Part shown: positions 3,192-49,665 of the stretch, one piece after another | Layout of the letters: every line of letters begins with the position of its first letter | Numbering within the stretch: the stretch's first letter is position 1 | IMG/VR virus record: IMGVR_UViG_3300014204_000125 | Coordinates: 32,001-96,000 of that record | Reading direction: 5' to 3' (one strand) | DNA: 64,000 bases | Source: a virus | Lineage: Duplodnaviria; Caudoviricetes | The notes under the pieces: generated by a model | Told to the model about the DNA's origin: nothing | The model's input: only the letters and a program-made list of their open reading frames with translations | The model's database searches: none | Made by a program: the position numbers and the translations under genes

Positions 3192-4966
3192 TAGCCGGTA
3201 CACCCACCAACATCATCTGCATCGTCTTGGATTCCCATCTGCCGGATCATCTGCACCCCGGCGCTTGCATACACCATAGCGGAATATCTATCCTTTTGAC
3301 CCTTGGCTATGAAATATTTAAAATAGTTTCCCGCGCGCTCGAGTTGCACCTTCGTAAGCTGAATCTTCAGCATGTGAATCCCAAGATATTCATCCTTTAT
3401 CTCCTCCATCCGAGCCAGGTATTCCTTGGGGAGATTATCCGTATCAAAGATTTCCGCCTGATTTATATAGGTGCGAGGCATGAGTTGAGTGTGGGACTCC
3501 AGAGAAGACTTCAAGAAATTATTCCAGATGGTATTCTTTTCCGCAGATGGCGCCAGCATCCTAAGGATCGAAACGTAGGGGGAAGTACCATCCATGATTA
3601 AAGGCGCATTCATTATATCGTCGGGATCTATGATCAAAGGGATATCGGGATACCCAAGCATATCGAGGGTTGCCCTGTTCCTTAAATTATCTTTGATCTC
3701 CGAGCCGGCGCCGCCCTGATCGATGCAAATCAGTCTTACCCCCGGGAACTTCCGGAAATATTTACATATCGTAGCCGTCATTTGGAGATGCGACATTCCC
3801 TGTTTTCCGAAACATGACACAACCCGGAATCGATCCTCGTCTACCATATTCACAACAAGACTAAACTCTGCGTTCTTATATGACATCGAGGACTTGGAAG
3901 GGTCTATTCCGAACACACAAGGGCGATCCGAGGATAGCAACGGGATAATCCGGCTATCCATGCCATCCCGGGACTTATACGAATTAAAAACCATCTCGGG
4001 CCCGTACTCGCGCCCCGAGGAAACCATGACTCTATTTTTGTTCTGGGAATTCCAAATATCTTTGTCAGTGAGAGGGTCCGCAAAAGAGTTGAGAATATTA
4101 TTAAGATCCATTTTGAAATAACGCCGTTTCACGTTCGGGTGATCAAAAGTGGAGTCTCCAATATATGTATCCTGAAAATCAAGAATGACAATCCCGTGTT
4201 CCTTACTCCCATTTTTTACATAATCGAGATACTGATTTATCGTATTCCAATACGCTGTGTAATCGTAGGAAAGGGTGCCAGAAAGAAGGATTGAGTTCTT
4301 ATTTTTTATCGGATTGCGAAACGCATAATAATAAAAGTCGCTATCGCTTTCCTTCTTATCCAAATCACTCATTGGATCGTACTGGACATTCATGAAGGGT
4401 TCGATTACGAGGGTCAAAGTCTCCCGGGGAACATCATCCATTTCACCCACATTAACCCTGAACCCACGGAATCCAAGAATATCGCCGGCGATCGAAACGC
4501 CTTTCATCGAACTCTTCGCGATCTTAATCGTGTATTCGTTCGTTTTTTTACTCACGGGTTTCCGGGGTTCTTCTAGTATTTTAGATATATATTGTTTCGG
4601 AGTCTGGCCGGCGATCTCATTCTTGAGAATCGACTCTGCGTAATCGAACGACTGCGCCGTCTGTTTGAACGAGCCCCCCGCTGTGGACATAATCTTATAT
4701 GCTTTATAAAGGATAGCCAGAATCAGATTGTATTCGCCTTCCTGAAAGGTCTTGGAGACACCACGAGACAGGAGCCAAACGCATTTACTTTTGCGAAAAA
4801 ACATGCGCGCGCATATCCGCTGGTGCGGGGCATTCTTTATCCCAAGAATCGCCCTCGCGAACCAGAGCGGGTGGGTCCGGAAGCCGTACACCATTTTCAA
4901 GTACCGCTTCCGGGTCGCCCAATCCGATTTGACATTTTTATTAGAGAATAGACTTAAAAGTCCCAT
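3191..4966 (-). CDS. terL: Terminase large subunit
   Basis: Walker A-like SRGVSKT, coupling motif LSGT, nuclease motifs FGIDPS, IDQGGAG and KDRYSA; lies upstream of portal. Confidence 0.85.
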   Translation of the reverse strand: MGLLSLFSNKNVKSDWATRKRYLKMVYGFRTHPLWFARAILGIKNAPHQRICARMFFRKSKCVWLLSRGVSKTFQEGEYNLILAILYKAYKIMSTAGGSFKQTAQSFDYAESILKNEIAGQTPKQYISKILEEPRKPVSKKTNEYTIKIAKSSMKGVSIAGDILGFRGFRVNVGEMDDVPRETLTLVIEPFMNVQYDPMSDLDKKESDSDFYYYAFRNPIKNKNSILLSGTLSYDYTAYWNTINQYLDYVKNGSKEHGIVILDFQDTYIGDSTFDHPNVKRRYFKMDLNNILNSFADPLTDKDIWNSQNKNRVMVSSGREYGPEMVFNSYKSRDGMDSRIIPLLSSDRPCVFGIDPSKSSMSYKNAEFSLVVNMVDEDRFRVVSCFGKQGMSHLQMTATICKYFRKFPGVRLICIDQGGAGSEIKDNLRNRATLDMLGYPDIPLIIDPDDIMNAPLIMDGTSPYVSILRMLAPSAEKNTIWNNFLKSSLESHTQLMPRTYINQAEIFDTDNLPKEYLARMEEIKDEYLGIHMLKIQLTKVQLERAGNYFKYFIAKGQKDRYSAMVYASAGVQMIRQMGIQDDADDVGGCTG

Positions 4967-6123
4967 TAATAACTGAGTCCTATCATTCTAATGTTTGTTT
5001 CCAGAATTATCTTCGACCCGTCCGTCGGATTCGCGAAGAACTGTCTGATAACGCATTTATTCGTGTCGGGGTCTACGGTGAAATGCAGCGCGCCGCACAT
5101 TGTTGCGAGGCTGTCGCAGAAAAGCTGGGCGGAGATATTGAACTCGATATCGCGAGAGAGTTCGATTATGCCTTGGGTGATCACGCTGTGCGCGGTGTTG
5201 AGATCGCTACCACATGAAAGCCTGAATATCTTATCTTTGGAGAGTTTGCAGTTCACGACAAGATAAGACTTGTTTTGGATAAGGCTTGTGATTTTGCTCA
5301 ACTCATGGGCCAGGGTTTCCGAATCGATTTCGAAAGATACAGCCGTATCGCTTGTCATCATAAGTTTCTCGGAAGCGATCCGGTTCACCGGCATTATTCG
5401 ACTCATTATCTGATAAAGCCCCTCGCCGGCCGAGATCATTACCATCGAATTTGAGGCGCTGACTTCGACCTCGCCGGTGGCTAAAACACCTGCGGAATAC
5501 TCGAGGAATGCGGGCGGGATTGCAACCGTAAATTCAGTCTCGGGCGGCTCTACGAGTTCAAGGGTGGTATGGGAAAGCACTTTGCCGTTCGTGGCTTCGA
5601 ATATGACTTCATTCTCCTTACTGAAAGCGTGGATAGCGCACAGTCTTTTGTCGGCGCATTCCTTGGGACCACATGCGAATTTTACTTTCTCAAATGCGTC
5701 GGCGAGATATGGCGCATGGACAAGGAAATTCCAGATTTCTTCCCCAAAACTGGGGGCGAAGAGGGATGTCAGACCGATACAACTCAGGTCTGTTTCGAAA
5801 GATCCCTGCAAAACCTTGATGCGACCCGAGCCTGGGTCCACATCGAGACTCACTTCGATTTTCTTATCGCAGTTCTCTACGATATCTTTGATAAGAGATC
5901 CCTGAATACCGAGGAGCATCGGGGAAACCTCGCCCTGAAACTGCCCGGGCGTTTGAATCGACGCGAAGGTCATACCATCGTTGGCATGCCATGTCACATA
6001 GTTCTGTCCCGGAATCACTTGCATAACCACGATATTCGGCAGTAATAACTTGTTTGCCTTGGCAAGTTTCACTGTCGCGTCGAGAGCCTTGAAAAGGCGT
6101 TCCCTGTTGATTGAAATGAGCAT
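4966..6123 (-). CDS. DNA polymerase III beta sliding clamp-like protein (divergent, copy 1)
   Basis: 385 aa, the size of DnaN. N-terminal MLISINRERLFKAL, plus KVKFA, EATNGKVL (cf. ATDGHRL), VAIP and IEFNIS match the three-domain clamp pattern. Confidence 0.7.
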   Translation of the reverse strand: MLISINRERLFKALDATVKLAKANKLLLPNIVVMQVIPGQNYVTWHANDGMTFASIQTPGQFQGEVSPMLLGIQGSLIKDIVENCDKKIEVSLDVDPGSGRIKVLQGSFETDLSCIGLTSLFAPSFGEEIWNFLVHAPYLADAFEKVKFACGPKECADKRLCAIHAFSKENEVIFEATNGKVLSHTTLELVEPPETEFTVAIPPAFLEYSAGVLATGEVEVSASNSMVMISAGEGLYQIMSRIMPVNRIASEKLMMTSDTAVSFEIDSETLAHELSKITSLIQNKSYLVVNCKLSKDKIFRLSCGSDLNTAHSVITQGIIELSRDIEFNISAQLFCDSLATMCGALHFTVDPDTNKCVIRQFFANPTDGSKIILETNIRMIGLSY

Positions 6124-32026: not shown

Positions 32027-33784
32027 TTCTTTTCTTTGGAAAGTAAAAAAAAAAAATATTTCAGTAACCCTATTCCAAAACTCGGAGCAATAAGGATTGT
32101 ATTCTCTATAGTCAGAGATAAGATAGTCTATAGTCTTATACTGTACTCTGATATTGGATCACTATGATTGACAGGATAAGAGATATCTTGAACTAGTATG
32201 TATTAGAGTTCAGTAGTTATAAACAGCAAGTTTGATTACTTATAACGCTCGCGTATGGTGATCTGTATAGCGATATACGTTGTATTACTATGTACAGTAT
32301 TAGAGTAGTGCAAGTGTATACTCGCAATAACATAAGACAGAGTTATATACACTGGGATACTGAGTATATAACCCCGTCTTGCACACACGCGGTCTATATC
32401 AGTATAAGCGATGGGTGTGGGGGCGACCAAATTATTGCTTCGAGGCCCCCTCATTCCAACCGCCCCTACCGGGCGGCGGGGGGCAGCCCGCAGGGCGTTG
32501 CCCCAATAGCCGCACAGGAGAATACCTGTATTCTATTTTATATTTATTCTATACAAAATAAGATAATATTATATCTATTCTACTCTGTATAAATATAATG
32601 CTATGTTATTTCTATGTTATGCAAGTATGGTATATACGAGTTATGAGTAACACATAGAATAACGAGTTACACTTTTACTACTAGCCACGCGCATATATGG
32701 GCACGCATGCGCGACTGTTGATTTTAAGTCATATATCTAATTTATTCAGAGATAGAATAAGAAATTCTTGCTGCTTTCTTGGAATTAAAGAACTGGGGTT
32801 CCCGGGGTTACGAGGAACCCCTGGATCTCAAAGGTACCATAGAAATTTTGAATAGAAACCTCATACCCGGTATTAGGATACCCCGGATTCAAAAAAACTG
32901 GGTTTCCTTGAAGATTTGAGGTATTTCTGGTTATGCTGGGGTTACTGGGTGGTTACGCTTTGGTTATAAACAGAAAATGTGTAGGGAAATCCAACACATT
33001 TACAATAATTAGTTTACATAACTGGGATAAAAAGTGTGGGATAACCCAACACTATACTGATAACGCGCATAAATAGCCTATTAGCGCGTATATAAAAAAT
33101 GGCATGTTTCCATGCTATGCAAATTCTGCATGGTACCACGCAATTTTTTCGCTGTAGTTAAAAAGTTACACCCTGCTATCGAGCAGGATACGAAATTTAT
33201 GCATACCTGATTTATTTTTAATCTGCTTTTATTCGATTTCAGAATGAGCCAGATTGGGTTGATATCTTTTCCCTTTTTACTCTTTTATTTGATTTTGGAT
33301 TGAGCCAGATTACGCGAGTACGATAGCGATAAATTCTCCCCCCATTCTCTTTCCTGAATCATCTGACCAGAAAAAACAATGAGCCAGAGGATTTAGGTAT
33401 GATAGCGATAAAAATCTGCCACACCACATCTGATTCAATACAAACCCCCCTCGCGCAGCGCGAGATATAATATGGCGCTGCCGATGATAGCATCGTAACA
33501 TCAAGTGTAACACGTTACAAGTAAATCGTAACATTATCACATTCTGGTAACACGTATACACAATCTGTTCTACTGCGTATTACTCTAAGCCAGTATATTG
33601 ATATATTATTCAAGTGTAACATTACCTTCATTAAAAATTGCAAGCGCCCCGGAAAACATCATACCATAACATCAGGTATCAAGTATCAATTCTATCAAGC
33701 GCCTCTGTCAATTAGTGGTGTATAACATCATGTTATAACGCGCCGGGTTAATAACGCTTATATAACATGATATTTCCGAAAACC

Positions 33785-33967
33785 TGAACGCTTGTTCAGA
33801 AGAAAATCGAAAACACTTGTTTTCATTAGTGTTATAAGAACATTTTTGAACACGTGTTCAAATTATAATGAACGCTTGTTCATTTTACTGGTATGTAATA
33901 TGCTATTTACCAGTGTTATCACGTTTTATAATGAACGCTTGTTCAGTAAATTATGAACGCTTGTTCA
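33785..33967. repeat. Five copies of the palindrome TGAAC-N4-GTTCA
   Basis: Starts at 33785, 33847, 33869, 33932 and 33954 (four TGAACGCTTGTTCA, one TGAACACGTGTTCA). Confidence 0.95.
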
Positions 33968-34010
33968 TTTTAGAATGTTAGCGCGTGATAACCTGATAAA
34001 AAATGCATTA

Positions 34011-34045
34011 TGCACTATAATAGTGCAATGCACTAAACAAGTGCA
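34011..34045. repeat. Tandem palindromes TGCACT-N5-AGTGCA
   Basis: TGCACTATAATAGTGCA (34011) and TGCACTAAACAAGTGCA (34029). Confidence 0.9.
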
Positions 34046-34524
34046 TATCAAAAAAAACATCATATCGAAAAAAATCAATTCAATATTTCAAAGTATCAAA
34101 CTAAAAAAAACTTATCAAGTATCAAGTTAAAAACATAAAACCGCTTAAAACTCGTTTTAAAGTATCAAATTGGAAAACTCTAACATAACTAACACATAAG
34201 TATCAAACTTTAAAACCTCGTGTAAATCGTATATTCGATATATTTAATATTGCACTAAAACATCAATAAAATTAATACTTTTACTTATCCGCGACAATTT
34301 CCATACCAACATATCATATATACAGTATAGTATAGTAATACTAACATTAAAAACTTGCAATAAAACCGCTTGCAATATAGCATTGTATCATAATGGTATT
34401 ATCCATTGAATTTTAATGTTATCCGTTATAGTGTCAAGTATTATCTTGATATTTTTTATATCCTGAAAACTATAATAAACAATGCTATTATCACAATATT
34501 CTTAAAACTATTTTTCTAACACGC

Positions 34525-34553
34525 TTGTTATTACTTAAAAACTATGTTATAAT
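34525..34553 (+). promoter_or_regulatory. Sigma70-type promoter heading the right arm
   Basis: TTGTTA, 17 bp, TG-extended TATAAT. Confidence 0.55.
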
Positions 34554-34742
34554 AAGAGTATAAAACAAATTTGAAATGAATTGTAAATCGCTTTTTAAAA
34601 ACTTATCACATATTCAAGAGCACTTGAATATATCTTATCAAGTATCAAGTGGTATCTTAAATCACGTTTGATACTTCAAAGTAAAATTCTATTTTTGCCG
34701 TTTTCAGGAAAAACGAGTATAATTTTAAAGGAATGATTTAAA

Positions 34743-35453
34743 ATGAATAATGCTAAAATCGAAAAAATGGAAAACCAGAAAATTGTTAACGCTTCCGCGA
34801 AAAACCTTGAAAACATGATACAAGGAAAACCGGTAGTTTTCCCTGTATCAATTCAGAACAAAAAACCGGAAAACGTTGAAACGAAAACCGAAAACATTAC
34901 CGAAAACGTGAAAAACAATTCCATTGTTATCGGACAGAAAACCTTGAACGTAAAAGTAAATATCGGCCCTATAACCCAAAAGTTTTTCGATCACGTTTTC
35001 GCCGAAAAACTCGAAAACTGGGAAAACAGCAAAAAAACCGCTTTAAAAAATAACGATTTGGACAAGCTCGAAAAACTCGAAGAAAACCCGCCTAAACGCG
35101 AAAATATCGAAAACGCTTGCTATTTTCAGGTCATAAACGCCCTGACCCTTACTCAAATTGCCATTGAAAGCAAATCAGTCCAGTCCGGCGTTCTCTCTCT
35201 CTCTAAGTCAAAATTGACCGGCAAAAATGTTAAAAACGCCGAGTTTTTCGCCGAGGACGTTGAAAACGTTTTGAAAACCGGATTATACAATTCTGAAATG
35301 GTAATAACGTTTCATTACGGTATCACGGATAAGGCGGGAGTATATTTCACCACGTTTTCAAATTTTGCACATACTTGCAAGGTCAATGGCGTCAATCCGG
35401 CAGAACGTAAGGCAAAAAGCCCGGTTTTTATCGGGACATTCAAGATAAGATAA
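34743..35453 (+). CDS. Hypothetical protein, first gene of the right arm
   Basis: 236 aa, AAAGGA RBS, very A-rich codon use, isolated by non-coding DNA on both sides. Confidence 0.8.
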   Translation: MNNAKIEKMENQKIVNASAKNLENMIQGKPVVFPVSIQNKKPENVETKTENITENVKNNSIVIGQKTLNVKVNIGPITQKFFDHVFAEKLENWENSKKTALKNNDLDKLEKLEENPPKRENIENACYFQVINALTLTQIAIESKSVQSGVLSLSKSKLTGKNVKNAEFFAEDVENVLKTGLYNSEMVITFHYGITDKAGVYFTTFSNFAHTCKVNGVNPAERKAKSPVFIGTFKIR

Positions 35454-36039
35454 TTTAAAATAGTTTTCCGGCCGGGTTAATACGGTTTGAAAAAACCGGC
35501 CCGGTCTTATATAGTTTATATTTTTATTCTTAAAAACGCTCTTTAACATATCCGAAAAACTATGAGAAAACAATGGTATAATCGTTTTCTTGATACCATG
35601 TATCAAGACCCGGATAAGATCCGATAAAACGATTAACACGTTAAAACGGCCCTTTATAAGACCTATTAAGACCGTTTTAAAACTTGATATCATGTATCAA
35701 GACAATGCTAACAAGCATTACCCGGAGTAAGTATTATAGTTTTGTATATTGTCTTTATACGCCCTTATCCGGCGTATTATCCGAAAAAAAACGGATAGAA
35801 TTTTAGCGCGATTAATCCGAAAAATTTTAACAAGTTTTGAAAATCATGTAAACCTTGACAGAAAACGGATTGACACGAAAAATTGATATCTTGTAAAAAG
35901 TTTTGAAACGTCTGAAAAATTTACGAAAAAAACTTTTTGCGATAAGATAGAATAAAATTTTTTAAGATAATACGGATATTAGAACGAAAAATCGACGCTT
36001 TATGACCGTCGATAGTTTTCGCGTTGCTCACGAAACGAG

Positions 36040-36504: not shown

Positions 36505-39500
36505 ATGAACGGACAAATGTGGTATCTCAAGTATCACCCGGCAGACGGCCGCAAATTAATGTCACCTGAAACCAAGGCCAAAATCAAAACTATTCTCGAG
36601 GGTCTTGTTAAGGCCGGCAAAATTCATTCATTTTTCATCGGGTTCCTCGAAAAGAATAACCCCAAGACCGAAGTATTCAAGATCTCCAGGACAAACGATC
36701 ACAGGTGCGGCGCCGTCTACGATTCGATCGCTACGCTCGAAGGCGTTGAAAGGTTCATCGCCTACAGGGACGCAGACCACTATAACGCTTATGATATGTA
36801 GGATGTGATTATTATGGCGTCACAATTAAATAATCTGGAGGCTGAGGTCGAACTTCTCAAAGCTCTCAATGCCGCCTATCTCAAGCACAACATCAGCAGA
36901 GCGGATTATAAAAGGATCCGCGATGCTATAACCTCATTAAATTGGAGGGAGGAATAATTATGAAAAACGAATCCTGCGACATCTTCAATCTGGTTTACAA
37001 CGATTTTTCTAAAGGCCGCAACCTTGCTGACTCCACAGGCCAGATCTTAAACAGCTTGCCTCCCGTGTATAGGATGGCTATTTTGTCCAGAGTGTTAGAC
37101 TTCATGAACTGGGGGAAATAAACAATGGACGACGCAATATTTATGGGATCCCTGTTTACCCTGCTTTTCGTAATCACCGGGACGGTGGCATTATTCTTAT
37201 AATAAGACCCGCCGTCTCCGTACAAGACAGGCCGGCGAGACCCTTTATGCCTGTCCCTGTCAAACCTAAACCCCAAGACAATAGTTTCGCGGCTATCTTA
37301 GAGAGATACATGAGGTGATATTATGCAGTTATCAAGTTTTGTTGGACCCGTCCCGGCGACATCCAAGGAAAGGCGCACCCGGTTAAGGCTGTGCGTCAGA
37401 CTGATCAATCATTTTTTCTCTCCGATATATTGGGGCAAGACCAATTTCAATGATACCGAGTTCAACGCAATGGGCGAGGTTGAGACCATGCACTTAGGGG
37501 CACAATACAAAATTATGCCCTGCACTTTCGGTGGCGTATTCCAATTTCAAGGTTATCTTGTTTCCGGCCCCGGGTTCAAACAGGCGGTGCTCTATGAGTG
37601 AAATAACCCGGCGCATCCAGGCCGAGATCGACACGTGCAATCTAATTCTGTACTGGTCAATTCTGGTCTGCAAGGTTTCGTTCTGTGTTTTGATCACGGC
37701 CGTCATATTGACACGGGCCGGTATTTTAAAGTGAGGTGCATTATGTTCCCTATCGAAAATCGAATCCATGTTTTCAATCTGTCCTCGACTCGCAAGACCA
37801 ACGATAACATATACAAAGCGTATCGAGATTTCGTTCGCGCCAACCCCAATTTCAAGGCGTGCATTGTGTCGGAGAATTGTGGTCTTATCTGCGTTCAAAG
37901 CGACTATCACAACCTGACGGCGATGGAGGTCTATGGGGTCGAATTCATCAATAACGTAAAGAAGATGGAGGTGTAGCTATGCTATGTCACGCCAATGAGA
38001 GATATCAGTTGGTTCTCTCGATTTACAACGACATGCTCAAAGATGAGGTGTCGAGACTCGGACTCAATTCAATTCTGGATCTCAGTCAGGAATGCCGGCA
38101 GACCAAATGGATGACTGCCAAGGCCATGATTACACTGCCAATGCGTAATCTGGCGTATAAAAACAACGATGCGGCTTATATTTTACAGTAGGAGGCATTT
38201 ATGGACGCTATTTATCTTACCAAGACCGACACAATGGCGAAGATCGCCGCGACTATCGGGTATGGCGGAACAAAATTTAGGGTGCGCATTGAGAAAGGCC
38301 CGTTTGATCTTCGGAGTTATTGGGACGGAGGTTCCCGGGATCAGTATTATTTACTCGATATCAAGACCGGGCTTCCTCTTCCCCTGCGAACCCAGACCGC
38401 GCCGGCCGAGTTCGGTGGACATGCAAGTTCTTTCATGCTTGAACCCGGGCAGATTCTTGTTCGGCACTCAACATTCTGTGGCAAAGACATGGGACTCGAA
38501 CTCTCTGTTTCTCCCGACAATCCCGAGATTATTAAGGCGCTCATGCCGCCAGACTCGGGTATCGAACTGTCAGAGAATGAACTGTTCGTTCTCTACACCA
38601 TCGGACACTTGAAGTCATGCGCCAGACCTGACGAGTATCGCAAGGCTGGCTTCAAGACGGCAGAGATCGACAGAATAAAAGTGAAGCTCCTCCAGATGGG
38701 GCTTTTAACGAAGATTGGCGCCATCACCGTCGAGGGGCGCAACTTCGTCAATCAGGCCGCGAGCAAGCGTAATGTATCATCGCATTCGCTTTTCCCGTGG
38801 CAATGGCAGAAGACCCCTGAAGCCATTGAGGCAAAGGCGGTGTAATATGGTAGACTTCTTCGGACTCGGGCCGTCACCCGTTGAGGCCGGGTGTGTTCAG
38901 GTATTGTCAGGACAGCCTGAAACTTATATTGAAAGCTGTCGTGAGGTTCATAATTATGTAAACCTATTGCGGAAACTATTCGTCAATATAATAGACGCCG
39001 ATCGCATTTATTCCAAGAAATTCGATCACGACTTCGGCCCGTATAATGAGGCCGTTGTTAGTTTTGAGACTGACAACGAGGACCAAGTCAAGCGGGCTCT
39101 ATTTATCGAGTCCCACACCCCGGCGCATTGGATCCACGACGAAGACATTGTGCCGTACACCGAAAATCAATTCAATGAATGGGTAAAAGCCAAGTATGAG
39201 CCATTTAAGGAGGCGACATTATGAATTACAAAAACATATCTACCGATACCCTCGTAAGTATGATCCCTGGATTGTGCAGGACTTACCGATTCGCACACCA
39301 GGACGAAACGCTTCACAAACTGGTAAGTATTATCGCCGCGTTAGACGAACGTGGTTTCTACAAGGGGGCGATAATATGAAACGGTGGATTCACCCAGAAT
39401 TGGTTCAATACATCCGGGCCTTCGTCTGGAACCATCATAAACTCAAACGTGAAGACAATAAACCCAAGGTGTTCTGGCTGCACTATATCGTGGAGGAGTG

Positions 39501-40144: not shown

Positions 40145-40293
40145 AATGATAGACGAGACAAGCGTAGAATCTATAACTAAACTCGGCCGGACAGAGATCC
40201 GGTATCGTAAAGACGGCAAGGTTGTCCGTGAAACATACAACGACTTCTCGGTGGCTATGAACCGCCAGAGAACGCTTGAAAGGGGTGAATAGT

Positions 40294-40878
40294 ATGAGTT
40301 TAAATCAAAAACAATCAGTTAATATCACACCGAGTTTCATCAAAAAATGGGATCCCTGCAAGCCCGGGCTTGACTGGTATCTCGAAAAGTTCCCAAAGAA
40401 ATTCAATAACTCGATCGGGGTATTGGACGCCTTAATAAAGGCGAATCAACTACCCTATGCAAACTGGCTGATTGTCCGAGTAATGTCAAGGCCGCAGTAT
40501 CTCAAATATGCGATATATGCTGCGGAGCAAGTTATCGGGATATACGAGAAAAAATACCCGAATAATCCGGCTCCAAGAAATGCAATCAAGGCGGCTAAAG
40601 CCGTATTGAAAAACGATACCATCGAAAACCGCAAGGCTGCTGCTGCTGCTGCTTATGCTGCTTATGCTGCTGCTGCTGCTTATGCTGCTTATGCTGCTGC
40701 TGCTGCTTATGCTGCTTATGCTGCTGCTGCTGATGCTGCTTATGCTGCTTATGCTGCTGATGCTGCTTATGCTGCTTATGCTGCTTATGCTGCTGCTGCT
40801 GCTTATGCTGATGCAAGAAAAGAAATGAGACTCAAGATCCTCAGATATGGGATTAAATTATTAAAGGCAGGTGAGTAA
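40294..40878 (+). CDS. Phage protein with an Ala/Tyr low-complexity tract (Imm-5-like helical domain)
   Basis: WDPC..GLDW, YAIYAAEQVI.IYEKKYPNN.APRNAI.AAK followed by AAY-type repeats. Confidence 0.7.
   Translation: MSLNQKQSVNITPSFIKKWDPCKPGLDWYLEKFPKKFNNSIGVLDALIKANQLPYANWLIVRVMSRPQYLKYAIYAAEQVIGIYEKKYPNNPAPRNAIKAAKAVLKNDTIENRKAAAAAAYAAYAAAAAYAAYAAAAAYAAYAAAADAAYAAYAADAAYAAYAAYAAAAAYADARKEMRLKILRYGIKLLKAGE
40636..40815 (+). repeat. Trinucleotide-based tandem tract of GCT/TAT/GAT codons
   Basis: About 180 nt built from (GCT)n interrupted by TAT or GAT. Confidence 0.95.
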
Positions 40879-48000: not shown

Positions 48001-49665
48001 ATGGAAGTAAAAGAGACAAACATAAATTCGTACTTGAAAGAACTCAAGACGGCGAGTAATCTGACGGGGCCGAGTGAAGTGGATAAGCTGCCGGAGCCTG
48101 TTATTATACCCTACGATTCGACAAAAACAGATAATTCGAATCCTGTTGATCCAGCTCCGATTGCTCTGGTTAAATCAATCGCTGATGAATATCTTAAAAT
48201 GAAGGTAGCCGAGATCCCCGTTAAGATGAGCGAAGAGCAAAAGAACAACGTCGTTACTGCGATTCAGGATGCGTATGAAGACGTATCGAAGGACGAACTT
48301 CTTCCCGACCTTGTAACTGTCGTTGAGGGAAACCAAACCGATGTGGATCCTCATATAGTTAAACATATCGAGGAAAATTCCGAGATCCAGAGCGCAATCG
48401 TGAACACCAAGGACTTCCTGAATATTCTGAATGCGGCCGCGAAGGTGCTGCCGGTGATGAAAAGTTCCCCCATTTACACCATAAGGCTGGAGACGTTCGG
48501 AGGGCGGCAGGACAAGTCCAAAAACAAACTCAAGATCCAGACAACCAATCTCGAAGTCTATTTCATAAGCAGCCTTGATATCGACGAAGACGATGCGACG
48601 TTCGATATCATGCTGGATCCCAAAAAGATCGTTGACATCGTAAAGTCAATGACAACCCCGGAGATATGTCTCAAGACTCAGTCTTCCCGTAGTATGCTCA
48701 CGGTGGTGGGCCAGTTCTCGATGGAGATGCCATACATGGATACCCTAGATAATTACCCGAATCTGCCTTTCGAAGAAAAAAAGGAAGACAAGAAAACTGT
48801 CAGCGAACTCAATAACGCAAATATTAAGACGGTCGATTTTCTCAAGGCCGTCGAACAGATCGAGTATGCCAGGTCTGGGGACGCAGTGAAGCAGACATAC
48901 CAGAAACTTTACATCGAATCCGAACACGGGGAGGCGAGGCTTGCCTGCACCGACGGGAAGCGGCTCGGGGTGGCTAAGGTTGCCTGTGAAATCAACTCAA
49001 TGCCGAATAGCGAGCCATTCCTGAAGCGTTTCAAAAACCTTCTGGTCCCCGAATGCGTTACCGATTCCATAAAGGCGCTCAAGACGAAGGCGGAATTCGT
49101 TGCCTTTTCTTTTATCAAAAGATACAGTCTGCCCGTCACAGAGAAGCCCGAGTCACACTACGAGATCGCTAAATATGTAACCCTGATGCTCGGTAACAAA
49201 CTGACCGGGGATACCCGATACATATTCGCCAATGAAGGCGTATTCCCGAACATAGATGCAGTTATCCCTAAAGAAGACGCCGCCAAGGTCAAGTTCTATG
49301 CAAACAAGGAGATTTTTACAAAAGCGATCGCGGGACTCAAGCCGATATGGAAAGACACTGACTCCGTAACCCTGACATGCCGGACGGATTCGATTAGTTT
49401 GAGCGCCAGGAATGCGACAACCGCGGAAGCCGCAATAATCATCACTGAGAAGCTGAACGACATAGCGACAACCCAAAGTGATTACGCTTTCCTCGTCACC
49501 CTAAACCCGAGGTATCTCTCGGAACTCGTGTCAAGGTTCGACAAGAAAGATGCGATCCTGTTTGAAATCGGCGGGGCGTCGAGTCCGATCGTTGTCAGCC
49601 TCAAGGATTGCAAAGGGACAGTTCATATTCTGATGCCGATAAGGCTGGGATACACGGGAAAATAA
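48001..49665 (+). CDS. DNA polymerase III beta sliding clamp-like protein (copy 2) with N-terminal extension
   Basis: TTNLE, NYPNLP, ACTDGKRL, GVFPNIDAVIP, LNPRYL, SPIV and C-terminal ILMPIR are DnaN hallmarks. Confidence 0.85.
   Translation: MEVKETNINSYLKELKTASNLTGPSEVDKLPEPVIIPYDSTKTDNSNPVDPAPIALVKSIADEYLKMKVAEIPVKMSEEQKNNVVTAIQDAYEDVSKDELLPDLVTVVEGNQTDVDPHIVKHIEENSEIQSAIVNTKDFLNILNAAAKVLPVMKSSPIYTIRLETFGGRQDKSKNKLKIQTTNLEVYFISSLDIDEDDATFDIMLDPKKIVDIVKSMTTPEICLKTQSSRSMLTVVGQFSMEMPYMDTLDNYPNLPFEEKKEDKKTVSELNNANIKTVDFLKAVEQIEYARSGDAVKQTYQKLYIESEHGEARLACTDGKRLGVAKVACEINSMPNSEPFLKRFKNLLVPECVTDSIKALKTKAEFVAFSFIKRYSLPVTEKPESHYEIAKYVTLMLGNKLTGDTRYIFANEGVFPNIDAVIPKEDAAKVKFYANKEIFTKAIAGLKPIWKDTDSVTLTCRTDSISLSARNATTAEAAIIITEKLNDIATTQSDYAFLVTLNPRYLSELVSRFDKKDAILFEIGGASSPIVVSLKDCKGTVHILMPIRLGYTGK

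Follow-up and report, generated by a model that had tools for sequence, protein, structure and literature searches.

A repeat-crowded gap between divergent gene arms as the probable cis-acting control region of a large phage

Promoter-primed replication origins are known from T4 (oriF and oriG), T7 (the primary origin) and the lactococcal phage c2 (ori), and tandem early promoters are represented by T7 A1–A3. In phages with fixed terminal repeats, the genome ends are typically found immediately before the early genes. A long untranslated region crowded with repeats is present in T5, where the 1.2-kb Repeat Region 3 combines palindromes with direct and inverted repeats and its function is unproven (Davison, bioRxiv 10.1101/866236). 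Clustered binding sites are also known from titration loci, namely, tandem transcription-factor decoys in yeast (PMC3322331), DnaA titration in E. coli (PMC12371093) and cloned, repeat-rich phage origins, which titrate phage replication factors and give the phage-encoded resistance (PER) phenotype (PMC8965321). Here we analyze a 2.3-kb non-coding gap in a complete phage genome of 115,335 bp (IMG/VR record IMGVR_UViG_3300014204_000125). The window is the 64,000-nucleotide stretch that corresponds to bases 32001–96000 of this record, and coordinates are window positions unless marked as genome. The gap (32455–34742) is located exactly at the divergence point of two gene arms and is the largest non-coding stretch of the genome once nonsense open reading frames (ORFs) are discounted.

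We consider the gap to be, with moderate confidence, the central cis-acting control region of the phage, harboring early promoters, operators and a putative replication origin, which would be bound mainly by phage proteins. The origin component is proposed more tentatively, as a serious candidate. By analogy, the closest mechanistic models appear to be lambda-type iteron origins, promoter-primed origins and tandem early promoter clusters, whereas T5 Repeat Region 3 is the closest in appearance. The comparison with T5 made in the original prediction holds in this latter respect: in both cases more than 1 kb of non-coding DNA in a lytic siphovirus of ~120 kb is crowded with several kinds of repeats. 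It does not extend to membership in the same class. Repeat Region 3 lies within a 10-kb terminal repeat and carries conserved paired DnaA boxes, whereas the gap is central between divergent arms, the phage has an unrelated terminase, and neither the paired DnaA boxes nor the long terminal repeat of a T5-type injection-stop (iss) region is found, the sole end repeat on the record being 123 bp long.

Motif content of the gap

All 26 ORFs of at least 25 amino acids in the gap are nonsense-like and protein coding was rejected, which upholds the earlier statement that the motifs lie mostly far from gene starts. No tRNA or tmRNA was found by ARAGORN in window positions 1–64000. The gap contains at least ten motif families, nearly all of them close to private to the region. 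The features of the gap and its right flank are as follows, from left to right, with the strand where one applies.

32236–32454, minus strand: first minus-strand ORF, adjoining the left edge of the gap
32455–32528: GC-rich island immediately upstream of the first ORF on the minus strand; it has three short hairpins, and palindromes were detected at 32460 and 32519
32529–32760: left AT-rich block with five TATTCTA (three plus, two minus; 0.26 expected if uniform); contains the least stable 150-bp window of the genome
32790–32967, plus strand: G-rich repeat block, with a GGGGTTCC/GGAACCCC inverted repeat followed by four GGTTAY at an exact 11-bp period (32929, 32940, 32951, 32962)
32979–33052: two 19-bp palindromes GTGTNGG-N5-CCNACAC (here GTGT-RGG-N5-CCAACAC; 32979, 33034), spaced by 55 bp and found nowhere else in the genome
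33102–33191, minus strand: two terminator-like hairpins with T-runs (33115–33102, 33191–33168; fold of 33055–33215, z = −2.3), possibly the ends of leftward non-coding transcripts
33226–33412, plus strand: three direct repeat units around TGAGCCAGA (33245, 33301, 33380; three of the four genome copies) spaced by 56 and 79 bp; two of the units are 33 nt long and end in GATAGCGATAAA
33484–33621: GTAACA block with the 14-bp palindrome TGTAAC-AC-GTTACA (33506; single genome copy) over the −35 of a leftward promoter-like site and five to six GTAACA nearby
33677–33699, plus strand: three TATCAAG-type heptads over the −10 of a leftward TTGACA-18-GATACT promoter-like site
33721–33774: 17-bp palindrome TATAACAT-C-ATGTTATA (33721; single genome copy) and a partial inverted copy at 33761
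33785–33967: five TGAAC-N4-GTTCA palindromes (33785, 33847, 33869, 33932, 33954; five of the six genome sites), four of them identical 14-mers; candidate origin iterons
33993–34045, plus strand: promoter-like CTGATA-17-TATAAT and two TGCAC-N7-GTGCA palindromes (TGCACT-N5-AGTGCA; 34011, 34029; 18-bp period), the only two in the genome
34052–34742, plus strand: AT-rich block with a candidate early promoter array and a candidate unwinding element; GTATCAA/TATCAAG sites (six plus, one minus) and A/T tracts at ~3 times the genome density
34743–35453, plus strand: first right-arm gene, 236 amino acids, no family, with GTATCAA-type sites on both flanks
35574–35700, plus strand: extended −10 promoter TGGTATAAT with the palindrome TTGATAC-CAT-GTATCAA (35590) and a second copy at 35684
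38201–38845, plus strand: early protein of 214 amino acids with an N-terminal beta domain and a C-terminal winged helix

Every motif named in the original prediction was recovered at its position. The families that it had not listed include GGTTAY, TATTCTA and extended −10 elements, as well as ATTGCAAG and GTAAATCG, with three copies each. All three genome copies of TATCAAGTATCAA and 8 of the 28 copies of GTATCAA are in the gap, and four more GTATCAA are found within the next 1 kb. The patchwork of repeats is well beyond chance, as had been proposed. Palindromes with arms of 6 nt number 38 in the gap, whereas dinucleotide shuffles give 11.2 ± 4.2 (at most 28) and the genome median is 5. Windows over the gap therefore rank first to fifth in the palindrome scan of the genome. 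Repeated 10-mers number 68 versus 9.3 ± 4.1. Enrichment of 8-mers reaches p values of ~3e-9 to 1e-8 for the cores of the TGAAC box and GTATCAA and 2.5e-7 for the TGAGCCAGA core; all three remain significant after correction. Every palindrome family is confined to 32455–35700 and none is found upstream of other genes. The direct repeats are biased to the plus strand (three of three TGAGCCAGA, seven of eight GTATCAA). One element of the original description, the near-matches to DnaA boxes, did not survive: TTATCC is at chance level in the gap (5 of 114 genome copies, 2.2 expected), TTATCCACA with at most one mismatch is absent between 30809 and 45526, and the gap contains no TTATNCACA DnaA box.

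Promoter-like sites and a possible origin

Extended −10 elements (TGnTATnWT) occur nine times in the gap versus 2.2 ± 1.5 in shuffles, a number reached in none of the 500 shuffles. Five of them are in tandem on the plus strand (34394, 34447, 34483, 34545, 34650; 0.26 expected), directly upstream of the first right-arm gene and together with TTGCCG-17-TATAAT at 34695–34723. This cluster (34394–34650) looks like a tandem early promoter array. As in promoter-primed origins and T7 A1–A3, the putative promoters are in tandem at the start of the early genes and would fire into the least stable DNA of the genome. Several motifs coincide with such elements, as expected of an operator-controlled promoter region, with palindromes over the −35, −10 or +1. 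The first TGCAC-N7-GTGCA palindrome (34011) has the TATAAT −10 within its spacer, and 33993–34045 may represent a promoter with overlapping putative operators. The palindrome at 33506 includes the −35 of a promoter-like site that has an extended −10 and points leftward (33511 to 33484). TATCAAG heptads also occur within a promoter spacer, and those at 34636–34649 directly adjoin the extended −10 at 34650. Downstream of the first gene, the TTGATAC-N3-GTATCAA palindrome at 35590 is positioned at approximately +1 of a perfect TGGTATAAT, with the second copy 94 bp further on. Because of this palindrome, GTATCAA can be considered a half-site of the operator type.

The most structured part of the gap comprises the five TGAAC boxes. 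They are spaced by 62, 22, 63 and 22 bp, corresponding to 5.9, 2.1, 6.0 and 2.1 helical turns, and hence are on one helix face. Four of the five are identical including the asymmetric GCTT spacer, and boxes 2–3 and 4–5 represent an 85-bp tandem duplication. Judged by these features, the boxes resemble iterons and not regulon operators that evolved independently. Next come the promoter-like site at 33993–34021 and, after it, the 700 bp with the lowest GC content of the genome (34052–34751; 23.7%). The two least stable 150-bp windows of the genome are both in the gap, and one of them, at 34439, is in this segment. No 10.5-bp periodicity of A-tracts was detected in the AT block.

The closest counterparts of the boxes were found by scanning IMG/VR for two TGAAC-N4-GTTCA boxes 22 bp apart, which yielded 13 contigs (L039–L051). 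The boxes in these contigs form 11- or 22-bp tandem arrays, in some cases with the identical 14-mer. In six of the 13 contigs they are within an ORF, five of these with Phage_rep_O or DUF1376 domains, and in one contig they adjoin a DnaB gene. Such placement corresponds to lambda, where the initiator gene contains the origin, and suggests that DUF1376 proteins are initiators with internal origins. The gap thus has the same core at the same 22-bp spacing as Phage_rep_O/DUF1376 genes with internal origins. The box arrays in the IMG/VR contigs are often found beside GGTTAW repeats.

The similarity to lambda-type origins is likewise partial. Such origins, which are bound by a winged-helix initiator, contain four to five dyad repeats phased at ~2 helical turns beside very AT-rich DNA, and the gap likewise offers five phased dyad-symmetric boxes and an adjacent AT-rich region. 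Unlike in lambda-type origins, the array is intergenic, the boxes form a single site and two pairs rather than an even tandem array, and no recognisable cognate initiator is found, with neither an O-like nor a DUF1376 protein detectable in this phage. The earlier suggestion that the region is an origin or a terminus agrees with the observations in its first half, since an origin fits the divergent arms, the lowest GC content and stability, the phased dyads and the occurrence of paired boxes in initiator genes; a terminus is considered unlikely, as discussed below. Also in favor of an origin in the gap, no other iteron or repeat array was found in the phage's own replication module.

Taken together, we propose that both gene arms start from the gap and that each motif family would be recognised by its own DNA-binding protein, sequence-specific and in most cases dimeric. 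Most of these binders would be early or middle proteins that the phage encodes and that belong to unrecognised families; the winged-helix protein at 38201–38845 is one candidate. They would switch the divergent early promoters on and off. The origin would consist of the five in-phase TGAAC-N4-GTTCA repeats, the neighboring repressible rightward promoter and the 700-bp AT-rich block. It could be either of the lambda-like type, with iterons and an unwinding element, or a promoter-primed origin similar to T4 oriF and that of T7.

Phage proteins, distant relatives and alternative readings

Pfam searches revealed no classical regulator, neither among 45 small proteins encoded near the gap nor elsewhere in the genome, and no phage RNA polymerase or sigma factor was found. 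The early 214-aa protein is a candidate binder of one motif family, judging from its predicted structure. It belongs to a large family without a Pfam model of its own (731 representatives at E ≤1e-3), with the motifs SYWDGGSR and FCGKDxGL in the conserved beta domain, and 26–27 of 80 members match an HTH_67 or winged helix-turn-helix (wHTH) model. The AlphaFold model built from a deep alignment has a predicted local distance difference test (pLDDT) score of 90. The C-terminal winged helix (residues 118–193) matches RosR, MarR and PadR at Z 8–9, and the N-terminal beta domain has no Foldseek match in the PDB.

No close relative of this lineage was found in the collections searched, and the majority of its early genes could not be assigned to a family. 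No DNA similarity was found to 50,697 phage records in near and distant modes, and the first right-arm gene, terminase and DnaE used as single queries yielded no close relatives. The best terminase match among 5.8 billion proteins is 41% identical, and distant relatives were reached through the terminase alignment. G001 (115 kb, 30% GC) is syntenic and has a 1.07-kb gap near the junction without TGAAC boxes; its homologue of the 214-aa protein comprises 131 amino acids and corresponds to the N-terminal part only, without the C-terminal domain. G004 (contig C16; 116.5 kb, 36% GC) has 36 proteins in common with the phage at ~34% identity and encodes the 214-aa protein at full length (39–44% identity). 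Its divergent junction of 847 bp is among the top windows for palindromes and repeats. The junction contains an AT-rich block with TTACGTAA palindromes, three GGACCT-N5-AGGTC palindromes and three AGGTCACAAGGTCA repeats, and copies of one promoter face both directions. The architecture therefore recurs in one of two relatives, and every motif differs. The same build with different motifs fits fast co-evolving pairs of phage proteins and sites, and conserved host regulators fit less well; the hosts of the two phages probably differ as well. Elsewhere in the same contig (G004:C16:73000–75500, L079), 524 repeated 10-mers are packed into 1.5 kb, probably a long tandem repeat.

Several observations weigh against the gap being a phage-controlled promoter and origin region. 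The blocks at 32790–33650 are separated from both flanking genes by more than 1 kb, a long distance for simple operators. Classical −35/−10 matches are not enriched in the gap (20 versus 16.3 in shuffles). Profile searches of the phage's own genome with HTH_3, Peptidase_S24, ParB_N, Sigma70_r2, RHH_1 and Omega_Repress gave no matches, and the same kind of search recognised no Phage_rep_O (PF04492) or DUF1376 (PF07120) initiator. The iteron block is neither inside nor beside an initiator gene. The single PF04492 match, a weak one at genome 99376–99519 that at 13.9 bits is below the cut-off, lies in a Rad50/SbcC-like ATPase and was rejected as an initiator. The cumulative GC skew, which the original prediction had put forward as a check, has its minimum at ~35000; this position is inseparable from gene orientation, and in G004 the skew tracks the strand switch rather than the repeat junction, so we discounted it as evidence for an origin. 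The only relatives are distant, too far for motif-level tests of conservation, and in one of them, G001, the gap is a modest to weak palindrome hotspot.

The most far-reaching alternative builds on the original prediction: the arrays would bind several host regulators (LexA-, NtrC- and LacI/Fur-type) while the DNA enters or is amplified, either titrating them away from host regulons or letting the phage read host physiology. In such a multi-specificity landing pad, amplifying phage DNA would soak up or sense global regulators of the SOS, nitrogen, carbon and metal type, a non-coding DNA counterpart of protein and RNA sponges. Clustered sites without an obvious target gene can indeed sequester a DNA-binding protein, as in the described decoy and titration loci. 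However, those have a single specificity with demonstrated binding, whereas the gap displays ten putative specificities with two to eight copies each. In favor of a decoy, the sites are gathered in one place rather than spread over the phage promoters, many are distant from genes, and classical phage repressor families are not found in the genome; yet the phage has its own early wHTH protein, and the motifs overlap promoter elements as ordinary operators do. The likeness to host sites holds at the level of cores, which match common geometries of bacterial regulator sites. The TGAAC boxes share GAAC-N4-GTTC with the Gram-positive-type LexA (Cheo) box, and six of the seven such cores in the genome are in the gap, but four of the boxes are identical down to the asymmetric spacer, with T/A in place of C/G as flanks. 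TGCAC-N7-GTGCA matches the core of an NtrC-type enhancer and adjoins sigma-54 promoters in two of three other phage contigs. By contrast, the gap contains no sigma-54 promoter (GG-N10-GC) in the form TGGCAY-N5-TTGC or a relaxed form, and a single relaxed match is ~64 kb away. Since there is no sigma-54 promoter in the genome, the NtrC-like palindromes cannot act as a classical enhancer. The DnaA part of the proposal falls with the absence of DnaA boxes. G004 shows the same architecture with unrelated motifs, and its GGACCT-N5-AGGTC palindrome, with three copies at the junction and one elsewhere in the 1.1-Mb bin (the control level), is not regulon-wide. A quick literature search found no precedent for phage non-coding DNA acting as a sponge of host regulators. 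With no positive support, we regard a host-protein decoy or sensor as very unlikely. If even one block did bind a host regulator, the phage would provide a rare example of host signaling being wired into the early switch of a lytic phage.

A role in the genome terminus, in packaging or in injection control, with the physical ends or a pause site for DNA entry in the gap and the repeats bound by terminase or injection-control proteins, similar to the untranslated repeat regions of T5, would suit a large virulent-type siphovirus of T5-like size, given the similar mix of repeats in Repeat Region 3. The gap is placed just ahead of the early genes, like the ends of phages with fixed terminal repeats, and has a GC hairpin island at its left edge. 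However, the terminase gene is ~28 kb off and its product unrelated to that of T5, the 123-bp end repeat is ~64 kb away, there are no DnaA boxes and no long inverted repeat pair like IRC/IRD of T5, and the contigs of three complete relatives have their breakpoints at different positions, as is typical of circular or permuted assemblies. These points make a terminus unlikely. It is also quite unlikely that the middle of the gap encodes non-coding RNAs, with some repeats acting at the RNA level. An example would be a leftward RNA of ~300–500 nt, running from the promoter-like site at 33484 or 33682 to the terminators at 33165 or 33100 and carrying three UCUGGCUCA motifs. Leftward promoter-like sites and the two minus-strand terminator-like hairpins do bracket 33100–33690, and the strong strand bias of the direct repeats is in line with this reading. 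Against this, there is no Rfam match apart from two sub-threshold ones, the fold z values are −1.3 to −2.3 (32770–32975 on both strands; 33055–33215 and 33160–33480 on the minus strand), and palindromes with 4–7-nt spacers together with the helical phasing point to recognition of duplex DNA.

A central control region bound mainly by phage proteins is the reading that we retain. It would provide a compact, mapped set of ~10 cis elements for fishing out the regulators and the replication initiator of this lineage, for finding its origin and for characterizing its early promoters, which belong to the extended −10 type. Should this ordinary reading hold, the region is chiefly of value for annotation and as one more case, alongside T5, in which a large lytic siphovirus retains a long repeat-crowded untranslated region.

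Neighboring genes and other observations

The arm to the left of the gap is on the minus strand and contains small unassigned genes, a sugar pathway, terminase and structural genes. The arm to the right is on the plus strand, with small early-type genes followed by those for two sliding-clamp homologues, ArdC, RtcB, RecT, DnaB, a DnaE-type polymerase, an exonuclease, a Rad50-like ATPase, a helicase and a primase. The product of the first right-arm gene has a weak lead in Atlas to Pam3 gp34-like proteins (score 0.88). The best bacterial match of the CDP-glucose 4,6-dehydratase is at most 39% identical and the matching taxa are mixed, which points to no particular host.

Two sliding-clamp (DnaN-like) homologues are located at 4966–6123 on the minus strand, beside the terminase in the late arm, and at 48001–49665 on the plus strand. 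The latter, of 554 amino acids, also has a weak RusA-like PHROG match. A coding tandem repeat at 40636–40814 (plus strand; 9/18/27-bp period, ~20 copies of GCTGCTGCT-type units) is inside a 200-aa protein with weak Imm5-like and DUF6931 matches. As a query, this protein (at 40276) matched unrelated small phages only. Among the other phage contigs carrying NtrC-type sites, L084 (IMGVR_UViG_3300022178_003821; 2340–2520) contains two identical TGCACC-N5-AGTGCA followed by three tandem perfect sigma-54 promoters (TTGGCAT-N4-CTTGCA), which looks like sigma-54-dependent transcription in a phage. A second locus with NtrC-type sites and sigma-54 promoters is L082:4060–4200. Finally, the Rad50/SbcC-like gene (genome 98476–100143; L073:2476–4143) encodes a 555-aa protein without a Pfam match, which is Rad50/SbcC-like by Atlas features (0.98) and structure (template modeling (TM) score 0.5). 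It is situated between genes for a PD-(D/E)XK exonuclease and a helicase, an arrangement corresponding to a T4 gp46/47-type recombination module.

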